From: Actinomycetes bacterium
Lineage (GTDB): Bacteria; Actinomycetota; Acidimicrobiia; Acidimicrobiales; SZUA-35
Direction: 5' to 3'
Assembly (NCBI GenBank): GCA_024276425.1
Contig: JAJRXF010000180.1
Location: 8,804-72,803, forward strand
Length of the DNA stretch: 64,000 nucleotides
The position numbers and the translations under genes are program-made. Below, in pieces: positions 1,987 to 25,379 of the stretch; within the stretch, counting starts at the first letter, position 1, and every line of letters begins with the position of its first letter. The notes beneath the pieces are model-generated. The model saw only the letters and a program-made list of their open reading frames with translations. It was not told the origin of the DNA and ran no database searches.

Positions 1987-4245
1987 TTACACAGCGACGA
2001 TGAAGACGGCGGCCAGCAAGGCGGCCGCTGCAAACATCAGGGTTGCGTACTGTCGGATCTTTCCGGACTGCACCTTGCGGAGGACTTCACCGGAGCTTTC
2101 TGCTCCGAATCCTGAAGCGTTGACTGCACCATCAATTGCGCCTTGGTCAATGAAGCGATAAACGAACCGACCAATAATGGTCGACCCGGTTCCGGCCGCA
2201 TTGATGATGCCATCCAAGACGTTCTGGTTGAACCAATAGGCGGCTCGAGCCACCGGCCCCTTCGTTCCACCGGCAATCACGCCAGTATAAAGGTGGTCCA
2301 GATAATACTTCTCAACCAGCAACTTGTGACCAGCTCGGGCCAGCCTGTTCTTGTCCCGGAGGCCTCCGGTTACCTCGGTGGCCAGCTTGTCCTTTGCGTA
2401 CAGCTTGGAGTAGTACGTCCAGACCAGCAGCCCCGTCGCCAAACCAATAATGGTTGCCAACAAGGCCAGGGCCACGCTGGGCTTAGCATGCCCAATCGTT
2501 GGGAAGGAACTGATACCGGACGGTTCGACCCAGCGAATGAACTTCTCCCCAATCCGGCTTCCCAGGACTGGGAATCCCTCAGGAATGTTGAATAGGCCAG
2601 CGAACACTGCTCCAAAGGCCAGAATGATCAAGGGGGTAGTAATCAGTGGGCCGGACTCGTGTGGCGTCTCGTGACCCCGGTACTCTCCAAAGAACGTCAG
2701 CCAGATAACTCGGACCATGTACCCAGCCGTCATTCCTGCTGCGATCATGCCGAAAATGAACGGAACCCAATAGGTTCCGTTACCACCGGTTCCGGGGAAC
2801 GCACCGGCTCCAACCAAGATCTCGTCCTTGGACCAGAATCCAGCCAGGGGTGGGATGCCAGCCAGTGCTCCGGATGCAATGACGAAGGTCCAGAACGTCT
2901 TGGGCATGAACTTGCGTAGACCCCCCATGTCCTTCTTCATATCAAAGCTGTGATGGCAGGCGTGGCTGACCGAGCCAGCGCCAAGGAACAGGGCCGCTTT
3001 GAAGATGGCGTGGGTGAACAAGTGGAAGAAGGCCGCGGTATAGGCGCCGACACCAAGGGCTAGCACCATGTAGCCGAGCTGTGAGACCGTTGAGTAGGCC
3101 AGGACCTTCTTAATGTCGTCTTGAACAAAGGCCAAGGCGCCTGCCCCCACAGTGGTGATACCGCCGATGAGGGCCATGGCATTGAGGGTCCCTCCCGAGA
3201 TGCCAAAGCCGATGAAGAAGACGGCATAAAGGCGACCGATGAGGTAGATACCAGCGACGACCATGGTGGCGGCGTGGATCAGAGCAGACACTGGTGTTGG
3301 TCCAGCCATGGCGTCAGGCAGCCAAGTGTGAAGGATGAACTGCCCCGACTTGGACATGACAGCGGCCATCAAGAAGAGACCAGCTACGAGAAGGGTGTTC
3401 TTGGAGATGGCACCGGAGATAGCAGCTTCATTGATGGCGACAATGTCAAAGGTCTTACCGGCCCCAAAATAGAGGATGATCATGCCGACCAACAGACCAA
3501 TGTCACCGACACGGTTGGTCAAGAAGGCCTTGAGTGCGGCATCGGAGTTTGGTTTTTCCTCCCACCAATGCCCAATTAGGGCAAAGGAGCAGACTCCAAC
3601 CAGTTCCCACCCGACGATCAACTGGAGCGTGCTGGAGGACAACACCATAAACAACATGGAGGCCGTGAACAGCGACAAGAATGCAAAGTAGTGGGTGTAG
3701 CGGCGATCCCCAGCCACATAGTCAGTGGAATAGACGTGGACCAGTCCGGATATGAACGTCACAACCACCAAGAGCAGCACGGACTGACCATCAACCAGGG
3801 TGCCAACGGTGATATCAGAGCCACCCTCCGAAGCCGGCCCGCCATTTTGGAACCAGGTGACGTCATTGACGACGGGGCAGGGACTGAACCTTTGCTCACC
3901 GTGGCCACTCTCGCCACCGCCCTCTCCCTCACCTTCGCCCTCAGCCGCAGCCTCAGTGTCGTGATTGCTCCCACCAACGGCTACTTCACCTCCGGCGCAG
4001 GAAATCGGACCAGCCTGAGCCTCGTTGACGTCCCCGTTGTAGCCGATCCAGGAAAAGGCGATGACGAGCGCAAACAAGAAGGAGCCAACGACCGCTGGCA
4101 CACCAACCAGGTGCGGCTTGATGCTCAATCGTTTGGAGAAAAACAGAATGAAGAGAAAGGAGGCGGCCATGACAGCCGGAATAAGCCAGACATAGTTAAA
4201 GACCGTGGGCACAGCGACGGCTTCGGCAGCAAGAAGAAGGTTCAC
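1987..4245 (-). CDS. nuoL: NADH-quinone oxidoreductase subunit L, cluster 2
   Basis: GWELVGVCSF, AFLTNRVGD, KSGQFILHTWLPDAMAGPTPVSALIHAATMV, GFWSKDEIL. Confidence 0.97.
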   Translation of the reverse strand: MNLLLAAEAVAVPTVFNYVWLIPAVMAASFLFILFFSKRLSIKPHLVGVPAVVGSFLFALVIAFSWIGYNGDVNEAQAGPISCAGGEVAVGGSNHDTEAAAEGEGEGEGGGESGHGEQRFSPCPVVNDVTWFQNGGPASEGGSDITVGTLVDGQSVLLLVVVTFISGLVHVYSTDYVAGDRRYTHYFAFLSLFTASMLFMVLSSSTLQLIVGWELVGVCSFALIGHWWEEKPNSDAALKAFLTNRVGDIGLLVGMIILYFGAGKTFDIVAINEAAISGAISKNTLLVAGLFLMAAVMSKSGQFILHTWLPDAMAGPTPVSALIHAATMVVAGIYLIGRLYAVFFIGFGISGGTLNAMALIGGITTVGAGALAFVQDDIKKVLAYSTVSQLGYMVLALGVGAYTAAFFHLFTHAIFKAALFLGAGSVSHACHHSFDMKKDMGGLRKFMPKTFWTFVIASGALAGIPPLAGFWSKDEILVGAGAFPGTGGNGTYWVPFIFGMIAAGMTAGYMVRVIWLTFFGEYRGHETPHESGPLITTPLIILAFGAVFAGLFNIPEGFPVLGSRIGEKFIRWVEPSGISSFPTIGHAKPSVALALLATIIGLATGLLVWTYYSKLYAKDKLATEVTGGLRDKNRLARAGHKLLVEKYYLDHLYTGVIAGGTKGPVARAAYWFNQNVLDGIINAAGTGSTIIGRFVYRFIDQGAIDGAVNASGFGAESSGEVLRKVQSGKIRQYATLMFAAAALLAAVFIVAV

Positions 4246-9244: not shown

Positions 9245-9664
9245 CTATACCCAGCGGAGTACACCCTTGCGCCAGGCGTACGCCAGACCAAGGGCAAGAA
9301 TAAAAATGAAGATGACCATCTCCACCAAACCAAAGACACCGAACTGCTCAAGTCCGACAGCCCACGGGAAGATGAAAACTGCTTCAACATCAAACATGAC
9401 AAATAGCAGAGCAAAAATGTAGTAGCGGATCTGGCTTTGGGACCAGCCATCCCCGACGGGGTCAACGCCGCTTTCATAGTTCTCGATCTTGGCTGCAGTT
9501 GGGCGATCTGGTCGGAAAACACGAGCCAGCCCAATGAAGGTAGCGACGGTAGCGAATGCGAGCACACCAAAGAGACCAACTATGAGATACTCACGAAGAA
9601 AGTTCGAGTAGTCAGACACGGCACGAGATGCTATCTCGCCCAGAGCCCCCGAACCAAGGTTCAT
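9245..9664 (-). CDS. nuoA: NADH-quinone oxidoreductase subunit A, cluster 2
   Basis: YESGVDP, YYIFALLFVMFDVEAVFIFPWA, YAWRKGVLRW; ATG 9664 overlaps the glgB stop (alternative GTG start at 9619). Confidence 0.93.
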   Translation of the reverse strand: MNLGSGALGEIASRAVSDYSNFLREYLIVGLFGVLAFATVATFIGLARVFRPDRPTAAKIENYESGVDPVGDGWSQSQIRYYIFALLFVMFDVEAVFIFPWAVGLEQFGVFGLVEMVIFIFILALGLAYAWRKGVLRWV

Positions 9665-11700: not shown

Positions 11701-12837
11701 GTGCAAATTGGTTCGCTTCAACTCGCAACGCCGGTCATTCTGGCACCGATGGCTGGGGTGACCAATGCGCCGTTTCGGCGACTTTGCCGCCGGTTTGCCC
11801 AGCAGGGGCCTGCAACCCCGGGTGAGGCCAGTTTGTTCGTCAACGAGATGGTTTCAGCCCGAGCACTGGTCGAAGGGAACCACAAGACCGACCGGTTGGC
11901 CAGCTTCGATCCGGATGAATCACCACGAAGCCTCCAGCTCGCAGGAGTCGAGCCGAAATACGTGGGGGAGGCCGTAAGCCGGCTGGTGTCTGAAGGCCGG
12001 ATCGACCATCTGGATCTCAACTTCGGCTGTCCCGTTCGTAAAGTCACAAAGAACGGGGGCGGAGGCGCTCTTCCCTACAAACGAAAGCTGTTTGCCGCCA
12101 TCATCCACGCTGCCGTTAGCAATGCTGGCCAGATTCCCGTCACCGTCAAGATGCGGGTTGGAATTGATGATGCTCACCCGACCTACCTTGAGGCTGGCCG
12201 GATAGCGGCGGACCTGGGAGTTTGCGCGTTGGCCTTGCACGGGCGGACTGTGGCCCAGCTTTATAGCGGACAGGCCGACTGGACGACGATTGGACGGCTT
12301 AAGGAAGCAGTGCCGGAGATTCCGGTCCTCGGCAATGGTGATATTTGGGAGGCTGGGGACGCGTTAGCAATGATGAATGAAACCGGTTGTGACGGGGTCG
12401 TGATTGGTCGAGGTTGTCTTGGGCGACCGTGGCTCTTTGCCGAGCTTGCAGCCGCCCTTGCGGGCCAGCCGGTCCCCGAACCACCAACAGTGTCCGAGAT
12501 CGTTCCCGTCATGACCGAGCATGCTGCCTCCCTCCAGGAGTGGTTTGGAACCGACCGCGGAATTCGAGAATTCCGAAAGCACACCGGCTGGTACCTAAAG
12601 GGGTACCCCGTCGGGGGAAAGACTCGGGGCCTGCTCGCGAACGTTGCCAGCATGGACGAACTCGAATGGATCCTCGGAAAGATCGCCGATGCGCCACTTC
12701 CACCAGAGAACCGTCGTGTCGCTCGCGGTCACACTCGCGGACCTCAAAACGTTTCCCTCCCCCAAGGGTGGTTGGACGACCCCGACGACGACGCGCTGGC
12801 TAGTCCCGAGGGAGATTCTGCCGCATCTGGGGGCTAG
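11701..12837 (+). CDS. dusB: tRNA-dihydrouridine synthase
   Basis: LAPMAGVT, DLNFGCP, VTVKMR, LHGRT, GNGDI, GVVIGRG. Confidence 0.95.
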   Translation: MQIGSLQLATPVILAPMAGVTNAPFRRLCRRFAQQGPATPGEASLFVNEMVSARALVEGNHKTDRLASFDPDESPRSLQLAGVEPKYVGEAVSRLVSEGRIDHLDLNFGCPVRKVTKNGGGGALPYKRKLFAAIIHAAVSNAGQIPVTVKMRVGIDDAHPTYLEAGRIAADLGVCALALHGRTVAQLYSGQADWTTIGRLKEAVPEIPVLGNGDIWEAGDALAMMNETGCDGVVIGRGCLGRPWLFAELAAALAGQPVPEPPTVSEIVPVMTEHAASLQEWFGTDRGIREFRKHTGWYLKGYPVGGKTRGLLANVASMDELEWILGKIADAPLPPENRRVARGHTRGPQNVSLPQGWLDDPDDDALASPEGDSAASGG

Positions 12838-14456
12838 CGAACAAGGGCAAGAGCGGCTTCGGCCAGGGCACCAGAACCAATATCAGGGAAGATCCCAAGA
12901 ACCAGAGTTACAACCGCAGCGAGAAGCACAACCGCCAACGTTGCCGGTGGAACCTCCAACGCCCGCACCTCCACTAGGGCCAACGTCTCATCCGCAGAGT
13001 CAGCCATTTCAGTGCTAGGCGACTCCTGAACATCGAGGAACATAGCAACGACGACCCTCAAGTACAGGTATGCCCCAACCGCGGCTCCAAGCATGGCCAC
13101 GCCAGCCAGGATGTAGGCCTCGGTCCGCTCAACCTGAGCCGCCGCAGCAATGACCCGAAACTTGGCAAAAAACCCGGCCGTGAAGGGGGCACCAACTTGT
13201 CCAAAAAGCAAAACCGTGAATGCCATCGCAAGAAGTGGCTCCCGTTTGGCCAATCCTCGGTACGCCTCAATGCTGTGGTTTCCGTCTCCCTTCTTACCCA
13301 CGATAGAAATCACTGCGAAGGTACCAATGGACATGAAGGTGTAAGCCAAGAGATAAAAAAGAACCGCTCTTTTCCCTGTGTCGCCGATGGCGACTGGGCT
13401 GGCTGCGGCATACAGCCCCACCAACATGAACCCGGCGTGAGCAATCGAAGAAAAGGCCATCGTACGCTTGATGTTGGTCTGGACAATGGCCAAGAAAGAA
13501 CCAAACAGAATCGTGAAACCGGCCATAAACAAGACCAGGACTCGCCAATCCGAAGCGAAGGTGCCACCGAATCCCACCAGGAAAACCCGCATCATTCCAC
13601 CGAAGGCCGCTACCTTGACCGCCGAGGTCATGAAGCCGACGATCGGGGTCGGTGATCCCTGGTAGACATCCGGAGTCCAGATGTGAAGAGGGAAGGCGGA
13701 GACCTTAAAGCCAAAGCCAATCAACATCAGAGCGATACCGACCATGACCAGAGAAGAATCGACCGCCGGAGATAACCCGGCCGCATTCCTTCCCGTCATT
13801 GAGCCCGCGACTCCGGTCAGGGTGGTCGAACCAGTGGCCCCATAGACCATGGCAATGCCGTACAAGAAAATGGCTGACGACAAGGCCCCAAGAATGAAGT
13901 ATTTGAACCCTGCTTCCTGAGATTCGGAGCGACGTAGATGAAGGGCAGCCAGAACATACACAGCGATCGACAAAATCTCCAGGCCAAGGAAGGTAACAAT
14001 GAGATCCTCGGCCGAAGCCAGAATGACTCCGCCACTAGCCGATATCAGGAGCAGGGCGTACCACTCGGGAGACTCAAACCCCTCCCGTTCCAGATAGCCA
14101 TCCAGCATGACCGCCACCAATATCACGGCCACAGATATCAAGCCGCTTACCCAAAGGGTGAAATGGTCAACCACCAAGGCCGAACTAACCAGGTCAACTG
14201 CAGGCCGACCCCCCTGCCCCGCGACAGGGTCGACAAGACCATCAAGCCGGGCTGCAATGAAGGGAAGAAAAGCCAGGGCTAGAACGCCAGTAGCTACGGT
14301 AAACAGGGCTGAGATGTGACGCCCTCGCATGACCGGGGCAACCGAGGTCAGAGTGATCAACAGGACGCCGCCTAGGGCGAGGATAAGAATGGGTGCCAGA
14401 TAGAACCATTGGATTTCTGGAGTCGATACTGGCACTTGGGCGAAGAGCGACATCAT
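12834..14456 (-). CDS. nuoN: NADH-quinone oxidoreductase subunit N, cluster 1
   Basis: FLGLEILS, EAGFKYFILG, FKVSAFPLHIWTPDVYQGSPT, GFFAKF. Confidence 0.96.
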   Translation of the reverse strand: MMSLFAQVPVSTPEIQWFYLAPILILALGGVLLITLTSVAPVMRGRHISALFTVATGVLALAFLPFIAARLDGLVDPVAGQGGRPAVDLVSSALVVDHFTLWVSGLISVAVILVAVMLDGYLEREGFESPEWYALLLISASGGVILASAEDLIVTFLGLEILSIAVYVLAALHLRRSESQEAGFKYFILGALSSAIFLYGIAMVYGATGSTTLTGVAGSMTGRNAAGLSPAVDSSLVMVGIALMLIGFGFKVSAFPLHIWTPDVYQGSPTPIVGFMTSAVKVAAFGGMMRVFLVGFGGTFASDWRVLVLFMAGFTILFGSFLAIVQTNIKRTMAFSSIAHAGFMLVGLYAAASPVAIGDTGKRAVLFYLLAYTFMSIGTFAVISIVGKKGDGNHSIEAYRGLAKREPLLAMAFTVLLFGQVGAPFTAGFFAKFRVIAAAAQVERTEAYILAGVAMLGAAVGAYLYLRVVVAMFLDVQESPSTEMADSADETLALVEVRALEVPPATLAVVLLAAVVTLVLGIFPDIGSGALAEAALALVR

Positions 14457-16156
14457 TTGGTTGTCTCGCCTTCTGCCAGGGAAGCCTCACGGCCCTCTTC
14501 ATCGACTGAATCTTCCACTTCGCCCTCCTCCCTGGCGGCCTTTTTCTCGGCCTCCTCCAAGGCTTCGGTGAGGGTGACTGCATCGCTGGGTCGCTCGGGT
14601 ACTTGCACAGGCCCTGGCTCGATGAAACCGTCAACATTGGCCTCGACGTGGGCTACCAGTCGTTCGATCGACGGCTCGATTCGTTCCAACATTGGTTTTG
14701 GGTATACCCCCATGAATACGATCAGAACGAGTAGTGGGAGCAGAACAAGTCCCTCAGAGGCCTTCAGTTCCGGCATATCGATATTGTCGCCAGTTGGGGT
14801 GCCATGGAAGACCCGCTGATAGGCCCAAAGAAGGTACAGGGCAGCAAGAATGACTCCAAGCACAGCAAAAACGGTCCACCAGCGTGCCGCCTGGAAGCCA
14901 CCGAGCAAAATCAGGAACTCACCGGTGAAACCATTGAGGCCAGGCAAGCCAATACTCGACAGCATCACCAGGGTGAACGCCGCGGCAAAGATGGGCGCAG
15001 GCTTCTGAAGACCACCAAGTTCCGCAATTTGTCGAGTGTGTCGTCGCTCATAGACCCAGCCCACCATGATGAACAACGCGCCGGTCGAAACGCCGTGCGC
15101 CACCATCTGGAATACCGATCCAGTAAGTCCCTGGGTGTTGAGCGTGAAGATGCCAAGAACAATAAATCCGAGGTGAGCAACCGAAGAATAGGCAACGAGG
15201 CGCTTGAGATCTTTCTGCATGGTTGCCACCACGGCGGCATACAGAATGCCGACCACTCCGAGGGTCAAGAAGATCCAAGCAAGGTCATAGGCCGCTTGGG
15301 GGAAAAGATAGACGCCGAAACGGATATAGCCATAGGTGCCCAACTTCAGCATGACACCAGCCAGGATGACCGAACCAGCAGTTGGTGCCTCGGTGTGAGC
15401 ATCTGGCAACCAGGTGTGGAGGGGAAAGATGGGGACCTTCACCGCAAAGGCTAAGGCGAAAGTTAAGAAAATTAGCCGTTGAGCGGTTGTCCCCAGGGCC
15501 TGGGCCTCAGCCAATTGGGTGACGTCAAAGGTGAGCGCATTGCCAGTTCGTGAGGCCGTTAGGAAGGCAAGGCTGACAATGCCAACCAGCATCAGAGCCG
15601 AACCCGCCATGGTGTAGATAAAGAACTTGAGGGCAGCATAAATTCGGCGACCGTGACCCCAGCCCCCAATCAAGAAATACATGGGGATCAGGACAACCTC
15701 GAAGAAGACAAAGAACAACAAAAGATCCAGAGCCATAAAGACACCCATAGATCCGGCCATGAGGACCATGATCCACGCGTGGTATGCCTTGGAGTCGTGT
15801 TGGGGTACCGCGGCAAGAATGGCTATCGGAAAAAGGATCCCGGTGAGAACAATCATGAACAACGAAATGCCGTCGACGGCAAAATGCCAGTTCAGGCCCA
15901 TGCTTGTGAGCCAGGGCTCATTCACGACGAACTGGAAGCCAGCCTCAGTCTTGTCGAATGCAGCCATCATCCAGACGGCCATCGCTCCGGTAATAGTCGA
16001 ACCGGCAAGGGCAACCAGTCGGACCTCGGACTGGCGATGAGATGGAACGAGCAGGATTGCCACCGCGCTAAGCAATGGCGTGATAATGAGAGCGGGCAGA
16101 ATGGGAAAAGCCGTTTGTGCGGCCAGAACCGAACTTTGGGCTAGAGCAGGGATCAT
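14453..16156 (-). CDS. nuoM: NADH-quinone oxidoreductase subunit M, cluster 1
   Basis: FFVFFEVVLIPMY, KVPIFPLHTWLPDAH, MLKLGTYG; TGATG overlap with nuoL; acidic C-terminal tail. Confidence 0.96.
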   Translation of the reverse strand: MIPALAQSSVLAAQTAFPILPALIITPLLSAVAILLVPSHRQSEVRLVALAGSTITGAMAVWMMAAFDKTEAGFQFVVNEPWLTSMGLNWHFAVDGISLFMIVLTGILFPIAILAAVPQHDSKAYHAWIMVLMAGSMGVFMALDLLLFFVFFEVVLIPMYFLIGGWGHGRRIYAALKFFIYTMAGSALMLVGIVSLAFLTASRTGNALTFDVTQLAEAQALGTTAQRLIFLTFALAFAVKVPIFPLHTWLPDAHTEAPTAGSVILAGVMLKLGTYGYIRFGVYLFPQAAYDLAWIFLTLGVVGILYAAVVATMQKDLKRLVAYSSVAHLGFIVLGIFTLNTQGLTGSVFQMVAHGVSTGALFIMVGWVYERRHTRQIAELGGLQKPAPIFAAAFTLVMLSSIGLPGLNGFTGEFLILLGGFQAARWWTVFAVLGVILAALYLLWAYQRVFHGTPTGDNIDMPELKASEGLVLLPLLVLIVFMGVYPKPMLERIEPSIERLVAHVEANVDGFIEPGPVQVPERPSDAVTLTEALEEAEKKAAREEGEVEDSVDEEGREASLAEGETTK

Positions 16157-18516
16157 CAGGCGAACAACCTCACTACGAACCAAAGTCCAATCAAACCAGC
16201 CGAACCGCTAATAAAAAGGGCGTACTGCCGAACAAGACCGGATTGAGAAGTCTTCAACTCCTTGCCGGTGAATTGGGCGAGACTCGCCGCACCATTGACC
16301 GCTCCATCAATGAAGGTCTTATCGAACCAGGCCATCCAATCAAAGAGGGTCCTGCCCGGGCCACCCATGAACCGAGCCAGGATGGCGTCCCATGTCACGG
16401 CCAAAGCAAAGTTCTTGCTTTCTATTTGTTCCGTGTTGCCTTGGCCATGTAGGTACACCCTGAACGCTACAAAAATGGCCGCCAGTCGACCAAGAACAGC
16501 GACTACAGCCAGGAGCCACTTGGTTGAGGTTGCCGACGTCACGTGCGCCTCGTTCACAAACAGAGAAGGCTCAAGCCAGTTCCCAAGAAACTGGAGCCGT
16601 TTGGCAAAGGGCAAGTTGATAGCTCCGCCGAGAGCCGCAAGCACGGCAAGTACGACCAGAGGCAGCGTCATAGTCCAGGGAGATTCGTGAGGTGTGTATT
16701 CCTTGCGTTCGTGGTAGGACTCCGGCAACTTGTCAACAAAGGCCTCAACTTCGGGCGCCTCGGTCAGAGCGGTCACCACTGGGGACACGGTTGGCGCTTC
16801 GGTCCTTCGACTGGCGGCGCGCTTCGCCTCAAGTTGGGCCGCTACAACCAACCCCTCGGCCTGGTCAACCGCATCGTCAAGCTCAGAAACCTTGCTGGTC
16901 GCTTTGGCCAGGGCAGCCTCGGCCTTGGGGACCGACTTGTTTGCCTTCTCAACCGCCTTAACCAGCTTGTCATACCCCTCTAGGCCCTCCGAACTCTCTG
17001 CCAGGGCATTGGTGGCCTCAGCAAGACTGTTTTGAGCCTTGGTTAAAGCCTCCGTTCTCTTTGCGACATCGGAACGGGCCTTGTCCAATGCGGTTGAGGT
17101 CTCATCGACCGTCTCTGCCGCCACGAGGTGTGCCGCCTGAGCCTCCTCGGCAAACTGGTCATAGGCGAAAGCGATCTCTTCGTTGGTGACATCCCAATAG
17201 CGAGTACGGCCGAAGAACGTGAGAATGACCTGCCTGGTCATGTAAAAGGCGGTCAAGATGGCGGTAACAAACCCGACGATCCACAAGGCCGGATTCTCAT
17301 TCCAGGCCGACAGAAGGATCTCATCCTTGCTCCAGAAGCCCGAGAACGGCGGAACTCCGGCAATCGCCAACCACCCAACGATGAACGTTCCAGCGGTGAT
17401 GGGCATGAATCGGGCCAGGCCGCCCATGCGCCTCATGTCTTGTTCGCCGTCTACACCATGGATTACTGAGCCCGATCCCAAGAACAACAACGCCTTGAAG
17501 AAGGCGTGTGTGATCATATGAAAGATTGCCGGGATGTATGCCCCGACTCCGACGGCCAGGAAGAGGTATCCAAGCTGGGAGACCGTCGAATAGGCCAAAA
17601 CCTTCTTGATGTCGGTCTGACTAATGGCAGCCAGGGCGGCAACGAAAGCAGTAATGGCACCGACCCAGGCAATCATGCTTGTGGCCCATGGATCAGCCTG
17701 GGCAAGTACCGGGTTTAGACGCGTAAGCAAGTAGACCCCTGATGTCACCATCGTGGCGGCATGGATCAGGGCCGAGACGGGCGTTGGTCCCGCCATTGCA
17801 TCGGGCAGCCACACAAAGAGTGGAATCTGAGCCGACTTTCCCGCTGCGGCAAGCAGAAACAAAAGCACAATGGCTGTCGCCGCACCAGCCGTAATTGGAG
17901 AGGTGAGGACATCGACATAGCGAATCGAGCCAATCTGGTTGAACACCAAGAAGGTTCCAAGCATGAACCCGAAGTCACCAACTCGATTGGTAACGAAGGC
18001 CTTCTTTCCCGCCGAGGCGTTGGCGTCAGAGTCGAACCAGAAGGAGATGAGAAGATAGGAGCAGGCCCCTACTCCCTCCCAACCTAGGAACGTAATCAAC
18101 AAGTTGTCACCCAGGACAAGCATCAGCATGGAGGCAGCAAACAAGTTGAGATACAGGAAGAACTTGGAGAAGTTGGCGTCACCGTGCATGTATCCGATGG
18201 AGTACAGATGGATGAGGAATCCAACGCCGGTGACGAAGAGACTCATCGTTATCGACAAGGGATCGACAAGAAATCCAAGGTCGACGCTGAAGGACCCGAC
18301 AGGGATCCACGTAAAGATCTTTTGGATATAGAACCGCTCGGCTGGAGCCTTATTCAGAAGCCCGATCAGTACGACGACGGTGGAGAGGAAACTCCCCCCG
18401 ATTGCTCCGGTAGCCAGCCAACCAGCGAGCGGCTCACCCAGGCGACGGCCAAGCAACAACAGGGTCAAGAATCCGGCAAGGGGGAGGGCGGGAATAAGCC
18501 ATGCGGCCTCAAGCAT
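16156..18516 (-). CDS. nuoL: NADH-quinone oxidoreductase subunit L, cluster 1, with a ~170-aa helical insertion
   Basis: GWEGVGACSY, AFVTNRVGD, KSAQIPLFVWLPDAMAGPTPVSALIHAATMV; long Ala/Glu/Lys-rich insert between FFGRTR and PHESP. Confidence 0.96.
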   Translation of the reverse strand: MLEAAWLIPALPLAGFLTLLLLGRRLGEPLAGWLATGAIGGSFLSTVVVLIGLLNKAPAERFYIQKIFTWIPVGSFSVDLGFLVDPLSITMSLFVTGVGFLIHLYSIGYMHGDANFSKFFLYLNLFAASMLMLVLGDNLLITFLGWEGVGACSYLLISFWFDSDANASAGKKAFVTNRVGDFGFMLGTFLVFNQIGSIRYVDVLTSPITAGAATAIVLLFLLAAAGKSAQIPLFVWLPDAMAGPTPVSALIHAATMVTSGVYLLTRLNPVLAQADPWATSMIAWVGAITAFVAALAAISQTDIKKVLAYSTVSQLGYLFLAVGVGAYIPAIFHMITHAFFKALLFLGSGSVIHGVDGEQDMRRMGGLARFMPITAGTFIVGWLAIAGVPPFSGFWSKDEILLSAWNENPALWIVGFVTAILTAFYMTRQVILTFFGRTRYWDVTNEEIAFAYDQFAEEAQAAHLVAAETVDETSTALDKARSDVAKRTEALTKAQNSLAEATNALAESSEGLEGYDKLVKAVEKANKSVPKAEAALAKATSKVSELDDAVDQAEGLVVAAQLEAKRAASRRTEAPTVSPVVTALTEAPEVEAFVDKLPESYHERKEYTPHESPWTMTLPLVVLAVLAALGGAINLPFAKRLQFLGNWLEPSLFVNEAHVTSATSTKWLLAVVAVLGRLAAIFVAFRVYLHGQGNTEQIESKNFALAVTWDAILARFMGGPGRTLFDWMAWFDKTFIDGAVNGAASLAQFTGKELKTSQSGLVRQYALFISGSAGLIGLWFVVRLFA

Positions 18517-18521
18517 TGGGG

Positions 18522-18827
18522 CTATCCCTTCATCTCGGCGAAATCATCAACCGTCGCCGTCGGGTTTCGACGGAGCAGGGCAACGACGATTGACAGTCCA
18601 ACGACCACTTCGGCTGCGGCAACGACAAGCACAAAGAAAACCGCGGTCTGGCCAGCGAGATCTCGGAGCGATCGAGAGAAGGCCACGAAACTAATATTGA
18701 CCGCGTTCAGCATCAATTCGACGCACATGAACATGACCAAAGGGTTTCTCCGAACCAACAGACCAAAAGATCCAAGCGCAAAAAGAACCGCACTTAGTAC
18801 GAGATACCAGGTAGTGGTTACCTCCAC
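18522..18827 (-). CDS. nuoK: NADH-quinone oxidoreductase subunit K, cluster 1
   Basis: [20 protein letters not shown]; AAGGAG upstream. Confidence 0.96.
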
Positions 18828-18903
18828 GACAATTCTCCTTGGTCAAAACCAGAACGAGGCGCTGGGAACCTACAGTTATCAGCCCTGTTCTTCGGGAAGC
18901 CAG

Positions 18904-19482
18904 TCATCGCACGCTTGTCCCTGGCTCGTCGACCACCAGATCTTCGCCTCCCCGGTTCTTGACCAGGACAACGGCTCCAACCGTGGCAATGGTCAACAAC
19001 AGACCTGTCGCTTCAAAGGCAAAGACGTTGCGGGTGAACAGATCATTGGCTAACTGGACCACATTGGGATCGGTGGTCAGTGGCACCATCTGGGAGGGCT
19101 TGCCCGTCAGAGCGACGGCCCCCCGGTTACCTCCTGGTCCGGAGAGAAATAGGCCAGCGAGGATGACGCCGAGCAGCAGAACCGAACCAATCAGGGCCGC
19201 AGCTCGCTGGCCGGGAATCGGTTCATCATCGAATCGTTCGATCTCCTCCACGCCAAGAAGCATGATCACAAAGAGGAATAGGACAACCACGGCTCCGCCA
19301 TAAACCACGACCTGGACCAGAGCGAGGAAATGGACCTCCTGAAGGATGAAAAGCACCGCCACCCCGAAAAAGCTAGCGATGAGCGACAGTGCCGCATGCA
19401 CCGGGTTCTGATTGAAGATCACCCCGACCGCACCACCAAGGATGATGATGGCCGAGACAATGAAGACAATGGCATCAACCAT
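18904..19482 (-). CDS. nuoJ: NADH-quinone oxidoreductase subunit J, cluster 1
   Basis: NPVHAAL, QVVVYGGAVVVLFLFVIMLL, FEATGLLL. Confidence 0.95.
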   Translation of the reverse strand: MVDAIVFIVSAIIILGGAVGVIFNQNPVHAALSLIASFFGVAVLFILQEVHFLALVQVVVYGGAVVVLFLFVIMLLGVEEIERFDDEPIPGQRAAALIGSVLLLGVILAGLFLSGPGGNRGAVALTGKPSQMVPLTTDPNVVQLANDLFTRNVFAFEATGLLLTIATVGAVVLVKNRGGEDLVVDEPGTSVR

Positions 19483-20183
19483 TAGTTGTGGCCTCCGTCG
19501 TGATCGCCTTGTTCATGAACTTCAGATTCCTCAGCACGATCGACCGCTTTGTCAGCAAAGGTTTGGCCCTTCTCCGGGTGGCGAACTCCGTATCCAAGTT
19601 CGCCCGACCATCCAATCTTGTTCTGATAGTCGGCTCGACCGGCGGGAGCGGTCGCCCTCATCCAGCCAGACGTATTGTCATCATCACCCGGCCGCCAGTC
19701 TTCCCAGGGCAGAAACTGGGGCCTGCCATCATCTCCAACCAGGAGCTCGTCCTTGGTGTAGATGGCGTCCTCCCGGTTCGTGAAACTGAATTCGAAGAGC
19801 TTCGTTTCGGTAATGGCCTGGGTCGGACAAGCCTCAACACACAAGTCGCAGTGGATACAGCGCAGGTAGTTGATCTCATAGACAAACCCAAAGCGCTCCC
19901 CTGGAGATTTAGGATCATCGATCGGGTTGTCCGCACCCCGGACGTAGATGCACTTCGCGGGGCAAACTCCAGCACAGAGTTCACAGCCAATACATTTCTC
20001 CATTCCGTCTTCGTACCGGTTCAGTACGTGTCGGCCATGGGCCCGCGACGGCTTGTCGATTTTCTGGTCCTTTGGCGACGGCTTGCCGTCGCTGTTCGGT
20101 CGCCCGCCTCGATATTCGGTGCTTACCTTCTGCTTACGCGGCCACTGCCGCAACGTGACCGCAAAACCCTCCAAGTATCCCAT
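19482..20183 (-). CDS. nuoI: NADH-quinone oxidoreductase subunit I, cluster 1
   Basis: [26 protein letters not shown]. Confidence 0.96.
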
Positions 20184-21502
20184 TAGTGGCCTCCTTGGGT
20201 TGTACCGGTCTGATGGCCTGCCAGCGACTCAGAATCCTGCGACTTGGGGGCGATTAGCTTGAGGCCTTCCTCCGCCAATCGCTCGCTTCGTGAGGTGCGT
20301 ATCGCGGCGTTCAGCATGGCATAGCCAAGCAGGCCAATGGCCAGTCCAAGGGCGATGACAATGACCAGGTCGGCCGAAGTGCTGTCAACAAAGGACAGAT
20401 CACCGGATCGAACAAGTTGGAGCCCACCGAGCATTAACAGCCAGGCCAGAGAAATCGGGATGAGGACCTTCCAGCCAAGGTCCATCAACTGGTCATAGCG
20501 GACTCGGGGAAGAGTGGCCCGGAACCACACAAAGATAAAGAGGAAGACCATGAGCTTGAGGAAAAACCAGATGAAGCCCATGAACGCACCAAGGGGCAAG
20601 AGTTGGGGGCCAGAGGGGCCACCAAAGAACAGGGTGACGATGATGCCACCCATGGTCACGGTATTCATGAACTCGGCCAGGAAGAACAAGGCGAACCGGA
20701 ACGATGAGTATTCGGTATGGAATCCACCGACGAGTTCCTGTTCGGCCTCGACCAAATCAAATGGCGGTCGGTTTAGCTCGGCCGTCGCAGCGATGAGGAA
20801 CACAATGAAGGGGATCAAGCCGGTTGTCACCACATTCCAGCGAGTGAAGTTAAAGCCGCCGTACCCTTCGGCTACTTGATTCAGGACGATCTGATTGGTA
20901 CTCAACGCGCCACTCACCAGGAAAACCGCAGCCAATGAAAGGCCGAGAGCTGCCTCATAAGAGATGGCTTGGGCGGTGGCCCGAACAGAACTGATTAGTG
21001 GATACTTCGATCCCGACCCGTAGCCAGCTAGAACGATGCCATACACGGCTAAGGAACTCATGGCCAAGAAAAACAGAATGCCGATGGGCACATCGGCAAC
21101 CTGCCACAGAAACTCCCGACTTCCAAGAAAGCCGGGCAACGTGCTACTGCCAGATCCCCCATTGGAAAAGTCACCAGCAATCGGAACTACCGTGAAGGTT
21201 AAGAAGGCGGGAACTACCGCCAAGAAGGGAGCCAGAACAAACAGGACCTTGTCGGCCTTGGCCGGGATGAGGTCTTCTTTGAACAACAGTTTCATGCCGT
21301 CGGCCATCGTTTGAAGCAGGCCAAATGGGCCAGCAACATTGGGACCGATTCGGTTCTGAAGGCGACCAACAACCTTGCGTTCGAACCAGACCATCAACAT
21401 GGTCATGACGAGCGTAAGAACTAAGGCAACAAGGGCCAAGACAACGGCCAAGATGACGTCGCCAAAATCGACGCCGTCGGCGAGGAAAGGATGCCCACCC
21501 AC
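20183..21502 (-). CDS. nuoH: NADH-quinone oxidoreductase subunit H, cluster 1
   Basis: [50 protein letters not shown]. Confidence 0.96.
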
Positions 21503-23946
21503 TAGCGCGCCACCCGAATTGTCGTTACCGGACTGCTAACAGAGATCAACTCGCCAACGTCAAACCCTGGTAGGCGAAAGGGAATGTGCGCCGTTCCACG
21601 AGGACAGGAATCATCGATGGTCACGACAAGATTTGCGCTGGCGCGTTCTGTCTCGATGGTGACTCGCTCACCCTCTTCGGTGGCCAACTTCTCGAAGTCG
21701 GACCTGGACAATGCCAGCCCAGCCTTCTCTGGCAGGCCAGCCAACGTGGCGGAGTTCTGAACCAAAGTCCCGAGATCCCACAATTTATGATCGACAACAA
21801 GGGCAAGCCCATAGCCGTCAACCGCGGGCACCGCCTTGCGCTCACCAAACTCAGGCGACCAGTCTCTCGTCGAATCGAGCAATGGCCCGTCGTCACCACG
21901 TCCCAGGTTGATCCAATCGACCTGAGAGAAACTCGCCACGTTGGCAGATAGGTCGATGCGCAGTTCTTCCAAGGTCGAAAAACCGAGATCGGCACCCAGC
22001 GATGCTGCCACGCCAACCGCGATAAGCCAGTCATCCCGAGATTGGCCCTTCGACGTTACTTTGGCCTGGATGGGACTCAGACGACCCTCGATATTGAGAA
22101 AACTACCATCAACCTCACCAAAGCCAGCCGCTGGAAGGACGATGTCGGCCAGGGTCGAGGAACTCGAAAGGAAGGTGTCAAGAGCAATAAGGTTGGTTAC
22201 CTGGTCGAAGGCTTGAGCAGCCAAGGCTCGATCAGGAAAGTCAGAGAGCGGATCTGCGCCAAGAAGCAGAAGCGTCTCGATTTGACCACCAACAACCGCT
22301 CGGAGAATCTGCTCGGTCGAGCATCCTCCCTCCGTTGGAACCCCGCCCATACCGAAGCCCGGGGCCAGTCCCATCTCAAACGCACCCATCAGGTTTCCGC
22401 GACGTAGCGCAGGCAAGAACTTTGCGTTGGGGGCAATAGTAAGGATCGATTGCACCGCGTCACGGAGAAAGTCTGAGGACTCGGCCAGATTCGCTCGGCC
22501 CAGAATGACCGTAACTGGCCGGTCACTGCCTAGGAGTTCGGCCGCCGCTTGGAGATCGCTCCCTTCGACCCCACCAACTGTTCCGCTGAAGGACCCATTG
22601 GCCATCGCCTCCGTTACCGAACCCAGGGCCCCAGGACGAGGGTGAAGGCTGAGGGCTGCATGCTTAGTCAACGATGTCCGTCGAGGTGTGATCTCGACAA
22701 TCGAGACCCCATCCTCAACCGCTGCGTGGCGTAGACGAAGGAAGAGAGTTGGCAGTTCTTCCTTTGGATCCCCTGCCATCAGAACAACAACGGACCCGGG
22801 TGCCACCGTTTCGGCAATACTCGCCCGTGGTAGGCCAAGGGCTAGATCAGCCGGAATACCATCGCCAAGGTCGGCATCGACATTGCTGATCAAGGCCACT
22901 TTGCTCAAAAGCTTGGACCACGCATATTGAGCTTCGACGCTCAATCGAGCGCCTCCGATGACTCCTACTCGCTCGGGGTTGGCGCCGAGGGCGGCGGCCG
23001 TTCGTGCCAGCGCGTTGTTCCACCGAATCGGAGCAAACCCAATATCACTTGTCTGGCCAGAACCGGTCTTGACTAGTGGTTCCGTCAACCGACTCGATGA
23101 GTTCGCCGACTCGTATCCAAACCGTTCCTTGTCTGACAACCATCCCCAATTGATGGCCTCGCTATCAACGCCAAGCACTCGGACTAGTTCATCTTGGGAG
23201 GATTGCAATGCAATGCGGGCGCCGGTGCCGTCAATGACGGCCGTCGACTCGGTCGCGGTTAGGTCCCACGGGCGCGCCTTGAATCGGTAGGGCGAGGCCG
23301 TGAGGGCCCCGACCGGACAGATCTGGACCGTATTCCCACTGAAATAGGAGGAGAAGGGGTGGTCCGGGAAGGTGTTGACCTGGGTCTCACTCCCCCGGCC
23401 CATAAAGTGAATGAGTGGATCGCCAGCCACCTCCTTGGAGAAACGCGTGCACCGATCACACAAGATGCAACGCTCACGGTCCAGGTTAACCAGGTCACTG
23501 ATCGGGATCGGCTTTTCGTAGTGCCGCTTCTCTTCCACAAAGCGGCTTTCACCGGGCCCATAGCTATACGCATTGTCTTGAAGTGGGCACTCTCCACCCT
23601 TGTCACAAACCGGGCAATCCAACGGATGGTTGATTAGGAAAAGTTCGAGCACTCCGCTCTGAGCCCGCTGGGTGACCTCATTCTCCGTCTGTACCTTCAT
23701 TTCCGGTGTGACCGGCAACATGCAGCTTGGCTGTAGGGCAGGACCGCGGCCAGTGTCGACCTCGACCAGGCACATTCGACACATTCCAACCGGTGTCATG
23801 CGTTCGTGGTAACAGAATCGTGGAATGTGAACTCCGTTACGTTCACACGCATCAATCAGAAGTTCGCCCTTGTTGGCGGTGAGTGACTTACCGTTGAGGA
23901 AGAAGGGAACCCCGGTTGCCGCCTCGGTCGATTCGGTTGCAGTCAT
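21502..23946 (-). CDS. nuoG: NADH-quinone oxidoreductase subunit G
   Basis: PRFCYH..GMCRMC..PSC (N1b), HPLDCPVCDKGGEC (N5), CILCDRC...CPVGAL (N4). Confidence 0.97.
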   Translation of the reverse strand: MTATESTEAATGVPFFLNGKSLTANKGELLIDACERNGVHIPRFCYHERMTPVGMCRMCLVEVDTGRGPALQPSCMLPVTPEMKVQTENEVTQRAQSGVLELFLINHPLDCPVCDKGGECPLQDNAYSYGPGESRFVEEKRHYEKPIPISDLVNLDRERCILCDRCTRFSKEVAGDPLIHFMGRGSETQVNTFPDHPFSSYFSGNTVQICPVGALTASPYRFKARPWDLTATESTAVIDGTGARIALQSSQDELVRVLGVDSEAINWGWLSDKERFGYESANSSSRLTEPLVKTGSGQTSDIGFAPIRWNNALARTAAALGANPERVGVIGGARLSVEAQYAWSKLLSKVALISNVDADLGDGIPADLALGLPRASIAETVAPGSVVVLMAGDPKEELPTLFLRLRHAAVEDGVSIVEITPRRTSLTKHAALSLHPRPGALGSVTEAMANGSFSGTVGGVEGSDLQAAAELLGSDRPVTVILGRANLAESSDFLRDAVQSILTIAPNAKFLPALRRGNLMGAFEMGLAPGFGMGGVPTEGGCSTEQILRAVVGGQIETLLLLGADPLSDFPDRALAAQAFDQVTNLIALDTFLSSSSTLADIVLPAAGFGEVDGSFLNIEGRLSPIQAKVTSKGQSRDDWLIAVGVAASLGADLGFSTLEELRIDLSANVASFSQVDWINLGRGDDGPLLDSTRDWSPEFGERKAVPAVDGYGLALVVDHKLWDLGTLVQNSATLAGLPEKAGLALSRSDFEKLATEEGERVTIETERASANLVVTIDDSCPRGTAHIPFRLPGFDVGELISVSSPVTTIRVAR

Positions 23947-25379
23947 TTACTCACCTCCAGTTGCTCCACCGCATCGGGCCCAACAGTAGGTGCCGTCGCC
24001 GAGATCAGTTCACTCTTAGGAATCAGCGCTTCGAACTCGGACCGGAACCGGCGAACCGCCGAGGTGATTGGAGCCACCGAAGACGGACCGAGCGGGCAAA
24101 TTGTCGTCTGTTTTGGAGGAAAGGGCACAGGGTCCAAATCCTCAGAAATGAATGAGGCTACGGGGTAATCTCCGGGGCTAATGCTCTGTCCAATCTCAAG
24201 AAGCAGGTCGAGGTCTTCGGGTCGACCGTGGCCGTCCGAAATACGCTGCAAGACCTTTTCTTCCCACGCAGTACCTTCGCGACACGGCGTGCATTTACCA
24301 CACGACTCCCTGGCATAGAACCGAACAAGCCGGAGACAAGCCTTGACGATGTCGGTTGTCTCGTCCATCACCATGATGGCGCCAGAACCAAGCATCGAGC
24401 CCTGTGATCCGACCTCAGACGCCTCGATGGGAAGATCGAGTTGGTCTTCAAAGAACCAGGGAGCAGATCCACCGCCGGGCACAAAAGCCTTCAGCGCGTT
24501 ACCATCCCGGATTCCCTGACAGAACTGTTCGCCGTAGAAAAGGTCTCGGAAGGTCACAACACCCTGTTCGACTTCGTAAACCCCCGGCCGGTTGACATGG
24601 CCACTGATGGCCAACATCCGGGTTCCTGGCGATTTCTCCGACCCATAGGATCGGAACTTGTCGGCCCCATTCACCATCAACCACGGCAAGTTAGCCAACG
24701 TCTCGACGTTGTTGACAATGGTTGGCTTCAAGTAGAGACCCTTCGCGGCCGGAAAGAACGGTGGCTTCAGCCGAGGCCGGCCAGGGTTTCCTTCCAGGCT
24801 TTCGATGAGGGCCGTCTCTTCACCAACGATGTAGGCACCTGCGCCCCAGTGCAAAACGACATCGATGGAGACGTCAGTACCCAAAATATTCTTGCCAACA
24901 TAGCCCGCGGCATAGGCGTCGTTGAGGGCCTGGGCGATCCGCTCCTGAGCCAGGGCCATCTCTCCCCGGACATACAAGAAGCATTGATTGAGTCCGAGGG
25001 CATAACAGGTGATGACGCAGCCTTCAATGAGCTGGTGGGGGTCGCGTTCCATGAGGAGCCGATCCTTATAGGTGCCCGGTTCGGACTCGTCACCGTTGAC
25101 CACCAGATATCGGGGCCAGACCGGTGGCATGAAGCCCCACTTAATTCCGGCTGGGAAACCAGCGCCGCCTCGTCCAAGTAAAACCGCATTCTTTACTTCA
25201 CCCGCAACCTCGGCTGGTGAGCGCCGAAGGGCATCTTTAAGGCCGTCGTACCCGCCGGTGGCCAGAGCCCGAACCAACGTATAGCTATCCTCATGGAGAA
25301 ACCGGCTGGTGACAATCTTGGGACCGTCATTGTCGACATAGCCCGCGGCGTGTGGGACATAGGCGTTCGTGGCCACCAT
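23943..25379 (-). CDS. nuoF: NADH-quinone oxidoreductase subunit F
   Basis: GRGGAGFP, NGDESEPGTYKDR, GAYIVGEETAL, ESCGKCTPCREG. Confidence 0.97.
   Translation of the reverse strand: MVATNAYVPHAAGYVDNDGPKIVTSRFLHEDSYTLVRALATGGYDGLKDALRRSPAEVAGEVKNAVLLGRGGAGFPAGIKWGFMPPVWPRYLVVNGDESEPGTYKDRLLMERDPHQLIEGCVITCYALGLNQCFLYVRGEMALAQERIAQALNDAYAAGYVGKNILGTDVSIDVVLHWGAGAYIVGEETALIESLEGNPGRPRLKPPFFPAAKGLYLKPTIVNNVETLANLPWLMVNGADKFRSYGSEKSPGTRMLAISGHVNRPGVYEVEQGVVTFRDLFYGEQFCQGIRDGNALKAFVPGGGSAPWFFEDQLDLPIEASEVGSQGSMLGSGAIMVMDETTDIVKACLRLVRFYARESCGKCTPCREGTAWEEKVLQRISDGHGRPEDLDLLLEIGQSISPGDYPVASFISEDLDPVPFPPKQTTICPLGPSSVAPITSAVRRFRSEFEALIPKSELISATAPTVGPDAVEQLEVSK

Follow-up and report, generated by a model that had tools for sequence, protein, structure and literature searches.

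Why should a core subunit of respiratory complex I carry some 170 additional residues in a loop that its own paralogue almost lacks? The question is raised by a nuoL gene in a stretch of 64,000 nucleotides from an Acidimicrobiales genome (the window), where a sequence-only reading had flagged a long insertion. Here we show that this insertion exists, where it lies, how it is distributed, that it is under selection and that its sequence is periodic, and we ask what it might be for. The gene (16156-18516, minus strand, as are the features of both NuoL genes given below) encodes 786 amino acids and is part of a complete nuoA-N operon, in which all 14 subunits are encoded, nuoA-K at 18522-29022 and nuoL, nuoM and nuoN at 12834-18516. 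The product contains three Pfam domains above cut-off: Proton_antipo_N (PF00662, residues 70-120, 1.2e-22), Proton_antipo_M (PF00361, residues 137-421, 5e-83) and Proton_antipo_C (PF01010, residues 603-692, 2.2e-09). The proton path of such subunits is lined by charged residues, namely Glu in TM5, Lys in TM7, His in TM8, His/His/Lys in TM11 and Lys/Asp in TM12. Among 44 aligned sequences, E147 (in GWEG), K227, H252, H337, K341 and K397 are invariant, and H333 and D398 are at least 90% conserved. The best solved relatives are 6hum_F and 8e9g_L, and the full-length model superimposes on the latter with a target-normalised TM score of 0.85 (Foldseek). The chain shares with canonical NuoL/Nqo12/ND5 (8e9g_L from M. 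smegmatis, 3rko_L from E. coli and 4he8_L from T. thermophilus) the three Pfam domains, the Glu/Lys/His motifs and the nuoA-N operon, and in the model also the 16 TM helices, the discontinuous TM7 and TM12, the transverse helix HL and TM16. By sequence and model, the insert-bearing chain is a real NuoL.

The insertion spans 16690..17199 (residues 440-609), exactly the in-frame segment of about 170 residues that had been flagged, and it appears as a gap against both the solved chains and the paralogue. Residue 440 pairs with 449 and residue 608 with 454 of 8e9g_L, and residue 439 pairs with 459 and residue 600 with 470 of 6hum_F; the alignments break at this place, and NuoL therefore has about 165 extra residues, whereas the canonical TM13-TM14 loop is short (about five residues in 8e9g_L). 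The paralogous NuoL (1987-4245, 752 aa) is nearly devoid of residues there, as had been noted: a BLASTP alignment of the two paralogues places its short equivalent loop at 2653..2694 (residues 518-531), with FFGEYRGHETPHES at the insertion site. An insert-less relative (L020) aligned without a break through the loop with the M. smegmatis, T. elongatus, T. thermophilus, E. coli and Paracoccus chains, and likewise with the plant, fungal and mammalian chains. The notion that this loop is normally short thus holds for most solved chains but fails for chloroplast NdhF, the exception, which has about 79 residues at the same site. Residues 438-610 consist of 20% Ala, 13% Glu, 9% Val, 8% Thr, 7.5% Lys and 7.5% Leu, with a net charge of -13; their highest 19-residue hydropathy is 0.86, so that the insert holds no TM segment. 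No Pfam family matched residues 431-616 of the window's NuoL above its gathering score (best 17.9 bits against cut-offs of at least 23). The sub-threshold matches were FliS, Seryl_tRNA_N, YkyA and other helical families, and YkyA was the commonest among 21 members (in 9, best E 0.015). A look-up of the insert in the ESM Atlas gave no usable match, and the literature searched contained no paper describing this insertion.

Could the segment be an assembly artefact, an intein or a mobile insertion? Searching public species genomes with tblastn, we found the insert at 92 loci, in at least 92 independent Acidimicrobiales assemblies. All taxon labels available for the 80 kept loci read Acidimicrobiia/Acidimicrobiales or Actinomycetota, except for one metagenome-assembled genome labelled Actinomyces sp. 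The same in-frame insert recurs in long contigs and chromosome-level records, and none of the listed matches has an internal stop. The insert DNA contains no tandem repeat, and no mobile-element Pfam domain was found in it. An order-wide profile search (E <= 1e-5; one match) returned no second copy from the window's own genome. The independent assemblies refute an artefactual or mobile origin, in favour of which nothing was found, and we regard its probability as negligible; misassembly, named in advance as an outcome that would overturn the sequence-only reading, is contradicted by the same assemblies.

Within the order, the insert was carried by 47 of the 401 genomes sampled, which belong to 25 (of 216) genera and 8 (of 83) families; in the window's own family, 20 of 24 relatives had it (18 in full length, 2 on cut contigs). 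In a NuoL tree built from 618 core columns with the paralogue as root, all 108 insert-bearing tips belonged to a single clade of 111 tips (support 0.89). An insert-less genus that has kept intact nuoL and nuoM, and whose loop at this site has 11-12 residues, is nested in the window's family. The best explanation of this distribution is that the insert arose once, in the ancestor of a group of Acidimicrobiales families, and was cleanly excised in at least one small-genome, streamlined genus inside the clade. Since nuoL and nuoM are intact in the genus that lost it, the insert is dispensable at least there. A profile search of 1.84 billion representatives gave 106 matches at E <= 0.001. Among the best 20 of these 106, 13 had NuoL Pfam domains, five were HlyD-type or generic coiled-coil proteins, and two (P0014 and P0019) had no Pfam match; P0019, whose match spans the entire profile, could be a short fragment of NuoL. 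The HlyD-family matches P0024 and P0025 reached E ~1e-13, in several stretches of repetitive coiled coils, a pattern typical of compositional matches.

Where does the segment sit in the enzyme? In the AF2 model, TM13 (17215..17292, residues 409-434) directly follows TM12b (residues 396-407), the site of the FWSKDEIL lysine, and closes the second five-helix repeat, called TM9-13 in passages of PMC5938582 and PMC8357420. After the insert come TM14 (16618..16677, residues 614-633, with a hydropathy peak at 620-638), TM15 (16450..16530, residues 663-689, peak at 667-685), HL (16246..16404, residues 705-757) as a single AF2 helix of 53 residues between TM15 and TM16, and TM16 (16162..16233, residues 762-785), which is again both an AF2 helix and a hydropathy peak. 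The C-terminal extension of TM15, HL and TM16 is accordingly present in the NuoL model, and hydropathy and AF2 agree on two TM helices between the insert and HL. Passages of PMC3046159 place HL on the cytoplasmic side, and passages of PMC5938582 assign the output channel to TM12b and the P side; in ND4, the homologous TMH13-14 loop touches a matrix helix (PMC8762328). The positive-inside count outside the insert loop was weak (9 versus 6 Lys and Arg), and the sidedness consequently rests on homology. From homology and the helix count, we infer that the insert is the TM13-TM14 loop and lies on the cytoplasmic side together with HL, at the distal tip of the membrane arm. We also considered the insert as the TM14-TM15 loop on the outer (P) side, which was ruled out by the AF2 helices and the TM12 lysine. 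The outer-face roles, such as cell-wall contact, a proton-exit antenna or pairing with the acidic C-terminal tail of NuoM, fell with that placement.

The insert is predicted to form an antiparallel coiled coil of two helices, 9 nm long, whose core is Ala-rich and 'Alacoil'-like. AF2 modelled helix A at 16999..17184 (residues 445-506, pLDDT 85-91) and helix B at 16807..16974 (residues 515-570, pLDDT 76-89), joined by a turn rich in Ser, Glu, Gly, Asp and Pro (16975..16998, residues 507-514) that is non-helical in both models, with a pLDDT of about 76. A return linker (16699..16806, residues 571-606) with conserved V-T-A and L-P-x-S-Y-x-x-R-Q-E-Y motifs leads away from helix B; in the model its residues 571-590 are without helix and are followed by short helices at 591-596 and 599-606, with a pLDDT of 84-92. 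The models were built on shallow alignments of 44 and 21 rows, on which the hairpin has a pLDDT of 76-91 within the whole protein and a mean of 88 as the insert alone. The long helical hairpin proposed in the sequence-only reading is therefore also the predicted fold, with a conserved heptad register, and the alternative that the segment might be disordered and unconserved is at odds with its predicted order and its conservation among relatives.

The periodicity of the sequence is consistent with this fold. The normalised power at a period of 3.5 was 12.7 for residues 470-545 (reached by none of 5000 shuffles), 10.2 for residues 445-580 (1 of 5000) and 4.6 for residues 440-606 (49 of 5000); the heptad-like pattern that had been seen by eye in the letters is thus matched by at most one shuffle in the first two ranges. 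Among 21 relatives, the power was at least 5.9 in 19 and 4.9 and 2.4 in the other two, where about 1 is expected by chance. In an Alacoil, each heptad combines a large hydrophobic residue at one of its two core positions with Ala at the other. In 54 non-identical sequences, position a of the insert is V/L/I, with big hydrophobic residues at 0.6-1.0, and Ala occupies 14 of 17 heptad d positions, from 459 to 567, at 0.67-0.96. The exceptions at d are 452 (F/W), 487 (R/K) and 518 (L), and at 567 Leu (0.43) exceeds Ala (0.31). The hydrophobic fraction, Ala included, is 0.82-0.89 at the a and d positions versus 0.32-0.37 elsewhere. Sequence periodicity and register thus both place the insert among heptad coiled coils with the Alacoil core pattern.

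The same core pattern bears on the dimerisation or supercomplex arm that the sequence-only reading had suggested, in which hairpins would pair with each other, or bind another respiratory complex, to form rows or supercomplexes. At the free end of the membrane arm, the predicted hairpin would be a rigid and exposed element, whose distal surface is conserved, and helical hairpins often pair into four-helix bundles. However, the pattern of Ala at d and V/L/I at a is wholly taken up by the two-helix core, and charged residues at b, c, e, f and g leave no second hydrophobic seam. We therefore consider such pairing improbable.

Conservation is unevenly spread along the hairpin. A conserved N-terminal anchor lies at 17161..17208 (residues 437-452), with the consensus R-T-R-F-F-D-A-x-x-E-E-I-x-x-A-F; it includes invariant and near-invariant alignment columns and is conserved across 54 sequences. 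The proximal half of the insert is acidic, variable and its least conserved part. The distal half (16882..17091, residues 476-545) is conserved and bears a ladder of lysines, formed by K479, K486 and K493 on helix A, and by K517, K524, K531 and K538 at position c and K520 and K527 at position f on helix B. These lysines occur at frequencies of 0.80-0.96 in the 54 non-identical sequences, except K493 at 0.50; P530 on helix B is near-invariant (0.96), and the exposed lysines, D483 and P530 are together conserved at 0.8-0.96. A ladder of at least three Lys spaced seven residues apart was found in 73 of 91 non-identical inserts. It is absent from the other 18, including whole length classes (127-128, 148, 152, 157, 161-163 and 184 residues), and hence the ladder cannot explain the insert across the whole clade.

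Is such a segment under selection at all? In 22 distinct pairs, the dN/dS of the insert ranged from 0.065 to 0.39 (median ~0.16), which indicates purifying selection, and that of the NuoL core from 0.04 to 0.16 (median ~0.075), the insert evolving two to three times faster. Insert length is under constraint: counted between residues 437 and 610 in 108 complete inserts, it was 174 residues in 48 and 172-177 in 72, and it ranged from 127 to 200 among families; other families have low-complexity loops of 15-51 residues at the site. The lengths of the two helix arms, located with a heuristic turn finder, showed a noisy relation across families, with r = -0.43 over all 56 unique inserts and a positive r of 0.71 solely in the 16 whose turn motif was clearest.

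These data allow the insert to be weighed as a near-neutral, entrenched expansion, that is, low-complexity helices in a tolerant loop, kept solely because the helices have to stay soluble and paired, and otherwise functionless. Its simple composition rich in Ala, Glu and Lys, its likeness to sub-threshold coiled-coil families and to no known domain, its faster evolution, its variable length with low-complexity loops at the site in other families, and the genus that lost it and kept the operon would all suit such an origin. Yet dN/dS is well below 1 in 22 of 22 pairs, two-thirds of the complete inserts (72/108) fall within 172-177 residues, and the insert has been kept in eight families. Moreover, the exposed lysines, D483 and P530 would be unneeded for hairpin pairing alone. 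On balance, we think a functionless expansion rather unlikely.

A second possibility is that the hairpin acts as an intramolecular brace, folding back over the cytoplasmic surface of NuoL and NuoM, next to HL, and stiffening the arm as a second clamp on that side. With about 90 Å, it could cover NuoL and part of NuoM; it begins at the distal tip, as HL does, its length is fixed within families, and the high pLDDT of the return linker suggests packing against something. But the helix surfaces are highly charged and have no conserved hydrophobic face beyond a and d, the proximal half, which would be expected to sit on NuoL, is the least conserved part, and the length differs widely among families. 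A brace therefore appears unlikely to us.

Our preferred explanation, which we hold tentatively and at somewhat less than an even chance, is a true lineage-specific NuoL insertion that folds as a hairpin and serves as a built-in accessory arm contacting a partner via its distal half. The insert would be a rigid arm built into a working NuoL at the distal tip, in which the acidic, variable proximal half might act as a spacer and the conserved distal half with its exposed lysine ladder might touch the partner, which could be a second protein or else something anionic, for instance a surface of lipid head groups or nucleic acid. The conserved linker would then bring the chain back to TM14. Rather than taking part in catalysis, such an arm might help to assemble, stabilise or position the enzyme.

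Several observations concern the accessory-arm role and its possible partners. The range of insert lengths argues against one target at a fixed distance; the insert-less genus with intact nuoL and nuoM and the faster evolution of the insert relative to the core likewise speak against the role. A control-free complex prediction pairing NuoM with the insert scored 0.00, below its mark of 0.32, and gave 'no answer'; it counts neither for nor against a contact. The C-terminal tail of NuoM was considered as a co-varying partner and rejected, as tails that are acidic or rich in His are found whether or not a genome carries the insert, the insert-less genus included.

Comparison with known systems might indicate what kind of element the insert is. 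The insert-alone model can be superimposed on known helical hairpins of 100 Å, and its best structural matches were the receptor-binding hairpins of colicins E3, E9 and E2 (2b5u_A, 5ew5_A and 2ysu_B), which are long antiparallel two-helix coiled coils, with query-normalised TM scores of 0.59-0.62 and r.m.s.d. of 2.2-6.4 Å; superpositions on the E9/E3/E2 hairpins over 119-132 columns gave 2.2-2.8 Å. The colicin hairpins pack in the Ala-rich 'Alacoil' manner and bind the receptor BtuB with their tip. The likeness is an analogy of shape only, because the E values of 0.03-0.09 are not significant, the identity is 18-22%, and the proteins and their context are unrelated. Membrane fusion proteins of the HlyD/EmrA type, of which EmrA (8zal_B) was among the fold matches, also carry long coiled-coil hairpins on a membrane machine, but these are periplasmic and reside on separate proteins.

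Among solved homologues, only chloroplast NdhF (9grx_F from spinach, 7wff_F from Arabidopsis and 7eu3_F from barley) has a large expansion in the same loop. In 9grx_F, it comprises about 79 residues between anchors 461 and 541, half as long as the NuoL insert, and by homology it shares the side of the insert, here the stromal (N) one. When searched by itself, the insert matched just NuoL of the Acidimicrobiales type and generic coiled coils, with no sequence similarity to the NdhF expansion, which therefore looks like an independent event. Other relatives of complex I carry accessory mass in the corresponding place, on the N face of their distal antiporter-like subunit, perhaps for a similar reason: NdhF3 bears CupA, and the NuoL-like DabB bears DabA. 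In chloroplast NDH, stromal PnsB subunits contact NdhF, according to passages of PMC12170339. These accessory masses are separate polypeptides with other folds, whereas here the extra mass is within the NuoL chain. A more far-reaching idea, which we regard as a long shot, is that the hairpin could be a cytoplasmic docking mast, whose lysine ladder recruits a dedicated partner to the distal tip or ties the enzyme to a second complex, the nucleoid or a membrane surface. If this were true, it would be an in-cis forerunner of the accessory modules found at the same spot in mitochondria, chloroplasts and cyanobacteria.

Bacterial complex I is usually treated as a minimal 14-subunit enzyme, and here a core pumping subunit has long kept what is predicted to be a 9-nm appendage, at a site where the organellar and cyanobacterial relatives dock accessory subunits. 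The NuoL insert thereby offers a natural case for asking how a distal subunit might profit from additional mass on its N side, with built-in controls in the form of a sister genus without the insert, families with arms of different lengths from 127 to 200 residues, and an insert-less paralogue in the same genome. It marks a largely uncultured clade of Acidimicrobiales as a worthwhile target for complex I structures.

The nuoL gene (16156-18516, minus strand) encodes 786 aa with the three Pfam domains typical of complex I chain L, Proton_antipo_N (residues 70-120), Proton_antipo_M (137-421) and Proton_antipo_C (603-692), and the nuoA-N operon around it is complete, with nuoA to nuoK at 18522-29022 and nuoM and nuoN at 12834-16183. 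Positions 16690-17199 correspond exactly to NuoL residues 440-609. The alignment to the M. smegmatis chain 8e9g_L breaks at this insert, NuoL 440 pairing with 449 and NuoL 608 with 454, and that to the cyanobacterial chain 6hum_F breaks in the same way. The insert contains 20% Ala, 13% Glu and 7.5% Lys, carries a net charge of -13 and has no hydrophobic stretch in the hydropathy of its residues. Its 3.5-residue periodicity is strong, being reached by 0-1 of 5000 shuffles (residues 470-545 and 445-580). Alignment break against solved chains, composition and shuffle test bear out the insertion of about 170 Ala/Glu/Lys-rich residues with heptad-like periodicity claimed in the sequence-only reading, and comparison of both paralogues confirmed its claim that the second NuoL has only about four residues at the site. 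The pumping residues of the insert-bearing NuoL are intact; therefore, the insert decorates a working subunit.

Several features of the neighbourhood were observed besides. The nuoL stop codon TGA overlaps the first in-frame nuoM ATG by one base (TGATG; 16154-16158, minus strand), suggesting that the two genes are translationally coupled and that nuoM starts at 16156 instead of the upstream TTG at 16183. Immediately upstream of nuoA, 29071-30021 (minus strand) encodes a predicted membrane protein of 316 aa that matches no Pfam family at E ≤ 1e-5; upstream of it is the gene of a 519-aa cytochrome c protein (30018-31577). NuoM ends in an acidic tail of 40-90 residues (14453 to about 14650, minus strand), seen also in relatives' loci L038-L117 and L136-L150, where it often includes short His-, Asp-, Ser- and Glu-rich repeats, and common to insert-bearing and insert-less Acidimicrobiales. 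Downstream of the complete operon come dus, an alpha-amylase-family gene and then, at a distance of about 3 kb, a second, partial nuo cluster (421-9748, minus strand). This cluster has homologues of nuoA, B, C, D, H, I, J, K, L and M and lacks nuoE, F and G, as in an 11-subunit-type complex. Its NuoL (1987-4245, minus strand, 752 aa), of which most relatives also have copies, also has an expansion, a Gly-, Glu-, Ala- and Ser-rich segment of low complexity (about residues 68-140) between TM2 and the Proton_antipo_N region, which begins at 141 instead of 70; this is a different loop, on the outer side by helix parity.

We searched 40 relatives for the insert, 24 of them genomes of the window's family. 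The same full-length architecture was found in 18 of these 24, and in two more on cut contigs; the relatives' insert-bearing frames are open, 770-835 aa long and free of internal stops. In one genus, genomes G008 and G021 (1.8-2.4 Mb) encode a NuoL of 645 aa in which the loop is 11-12 residues long and the insert is absent; two further family genomes (66% and 91% complete) yielded no NuoL orthologue. Outside the family, the TM13-TM14 loops span 11-51 residues in 15 representatives out of the 16 other families sampled. A pattern scan with one genome per species confirmed 92 insert loci; the titles of the 80 kept name Acidimicrobiia/Acidimicrobiales or Actinomycetota/Actinomycetes MAGs, with one exception (Actinomyces sp.), and chromosome-level records are among them. 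Across the order, the insert profile matched 47 of 401 evenly drawn genomes (E ≤ 1e-5), representing 25 of 216 genera and 8 of 83 families. Almost every genome sampled from the four carrier families tallied has the insert (9/9, 8/9, 6/7 and 1/1). Alignment of the relatives' NuoL for presence and length of the insert, as the earlier reading had proposed, shows it kept across many Acidimicrobiales assemblies. An assembly artefact is ruled out because the same in-frame insert recurs in many of them, chromosome-level records included.

AlphaFold2 modelling of NuoL (44-row alignment; mean pLDDT 84, pTM 0.77) predicts helix A at residues 445-506, a turn at 507-514 and helix B at 515-570 (pLDDT 76-91), after which the chain is extended over 571-590 and forms short helices at 591-596 and 599-606 (pLDDT 84-92 over 571-606). 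Folded alone, the insert gives the same elements (mean pLDDT 88). The long helical hairpin anticipated from sequence is thus predicted, and the heptad signal is present: in the 170-177 class (54 non-identical sequences), heptad position a is V, L or I, d almost always Ala and g often Ala, as in the tight antiparallel 'Alacoil'. The insert-alone model superposes best on the long antiparallel hairpins of colicins E9, E3 and E2 (r.m.s.d. 2.2-2.8 Å over 119-132 columns), followed by those of EmrA, Vipp1/PspA, YscO and SH3BP5. All of these matches are non-significant (E of 0.03 and above), and such matches to a predicted model reflect shape, not kinship. No Pfam family scored above its threshold on the insert. 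Its profile gave 106 matches at E ≤ 0.001 against 1.84 billion representatives; the best 20 of these comprise 13 proteins with NuoL Pfam domains, five HlyD-type or generic coiled-coil proteins and two without a Pfam match (P0014 and P0019). Judging by a match that covers the entire profile, P0019 may be a short piece of NuoL.

The lysine of FWSKDEIL marks TM12b (396-407), and helix 409-434 is TM13, the last of the TM9-13 repeat. After the insert come hydrophobic helices 614-633 and 663-689, the 53-residue transverse helix HL (705-757) and TM16. With TM13 before the insert and two transmembrane helices between it and HL, the insert lies in the TM13-TM14 loop. Passages in published accounts place the lateral helix on the cytoplasmic side, flanked by two transmembrane helices (PMC3046159), the input channel on the N side at TM7b and the output at TM12b (PMC5938582), and the homologous ND4 TMH13-14 loop in contact with a matrix helix of NDUFB4 (PMC8762328). 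Together, these points put the insert on the cytoplasmic (N) side, as we infer from homology and helix count; the positive-inside count in NuoL is too weak to add to this assignment. From there the insert could brace the membrane arm beside HL, which we regard as unlikely.

Conservation is unevenly distributed along the hairpin. Conserved segments are an N-terminal anchor (R-T-R-F-F-D-A..E-E-I..A) and a return linker (V-T-A and L-P-x-S-Y..R-Q-E-Y-H-P-H); in between, both helices are acidic and vary over their proximal half, and conservation is highest in the distal half (476-545). Exposed lysines occur at heptad c (K479 and K486 in helix A; K517, K524, K531 and K538 in helix B) and others at f (K520 and K527), all at frequencies of 0.80-0.96. 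K493 has a frequency of 0.50, and D483 and P530 are nearly invariant. Of 91 non-identical inserts, 73 have a ladder of three or more Lys at 7-residue spacing and 49 one of four or more; several families whose arms are shorter or differ in composition lack the ladder. Counted between residues 437 and 610, the 108 complete inserts span 127-200 residues, 48 having exactly 174 and 72 having 172-177. In one genus (L019 of genome G010, and L096), the insert has 142 residues; about 15 residues of helix A and 14 of helix B are missing, roughly two heptads per arm with uncertain gap placement, as expected if the arms must stay matched.

A maximum-likelihood tree rooted on the window's paralogue was built from 618 core columns, insert columns removed, of 124 sequences no shorter than 600 aa. 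It groups all 108 tips with the insert in a single clade of 111 (support 0.89). Three tips of this clade lack the insert: the small genomes G008 and G021, which sit deep inside the window's family, and one other genome, whose loop has 43 residues. The simplest reading of this tree is that the insert was gained once and later lost cleanly at least once. Insert-less families of the order often have TM13-TM14 loops of 37-51 residues rich in His, Gly, Ala and acidic residues (L022, L023, L028, L032 and L033); the L022 and L023 loops are nearest to the insert clade in the tree and therefore could be remnants or precursors of the insert. Near-neutral, entrenched expansion is a fairly unlikely explanation; in its favour are the clean loss that one genus shows and the range of insert lengths from family to family. 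Nei-Gojobori dN/dS over 22 distinct pairs (82-95% amino-acid identity) was 0.065-0.39 for the insert (median about 0.16) and 0.04-0.16 for the core (median about 0.075), some ratios being rough because dS exceeds 1. These estimates indicate purifying selection on the insert, two to three times weaker than on the core.

The conserved tip region, the variable stalk with a length fixed within families, the exposed conserved charges and the purifying selection lead us to propose, tentatively, that the insert is a putative rigid arm, in which the conserved distal half would make a contact. An arm for dimers or supercomplexes appears quite improbable. By analogy, the insert would be an in-cis counterpart of accessory proteins found elsewhere on the same face of the distal subunit. 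CupA of cyanobacteria is one such protein. Passages in published accounts place NDUFB subunits and the acyl carrier protein there in mitochondria (PMC8762328), and stromal PnsB subunits in chloroplasts (PMC12170339).

The NuoL of an insert-less relative aligns unbroken through the TM13-TM14 loop with bacterial, cyanobacterial, plant, fungal and mammalian chains. The one interruption at this loop is in chloroplast NdhF, which has about 79 residues between the anchors, with no detectable sequence similarity to the insert; the NdhF loop goes undiscussed in the available passages of the spinach NDH account (PMC12170339). No published description of the NuoL insertion was found in the literature. 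The protein is an ordinary NuoL with a new, clade-specific appendage that is predicted to be structured. No long-standing question hinges on the insert yet, and the insert clade offers natural controls.
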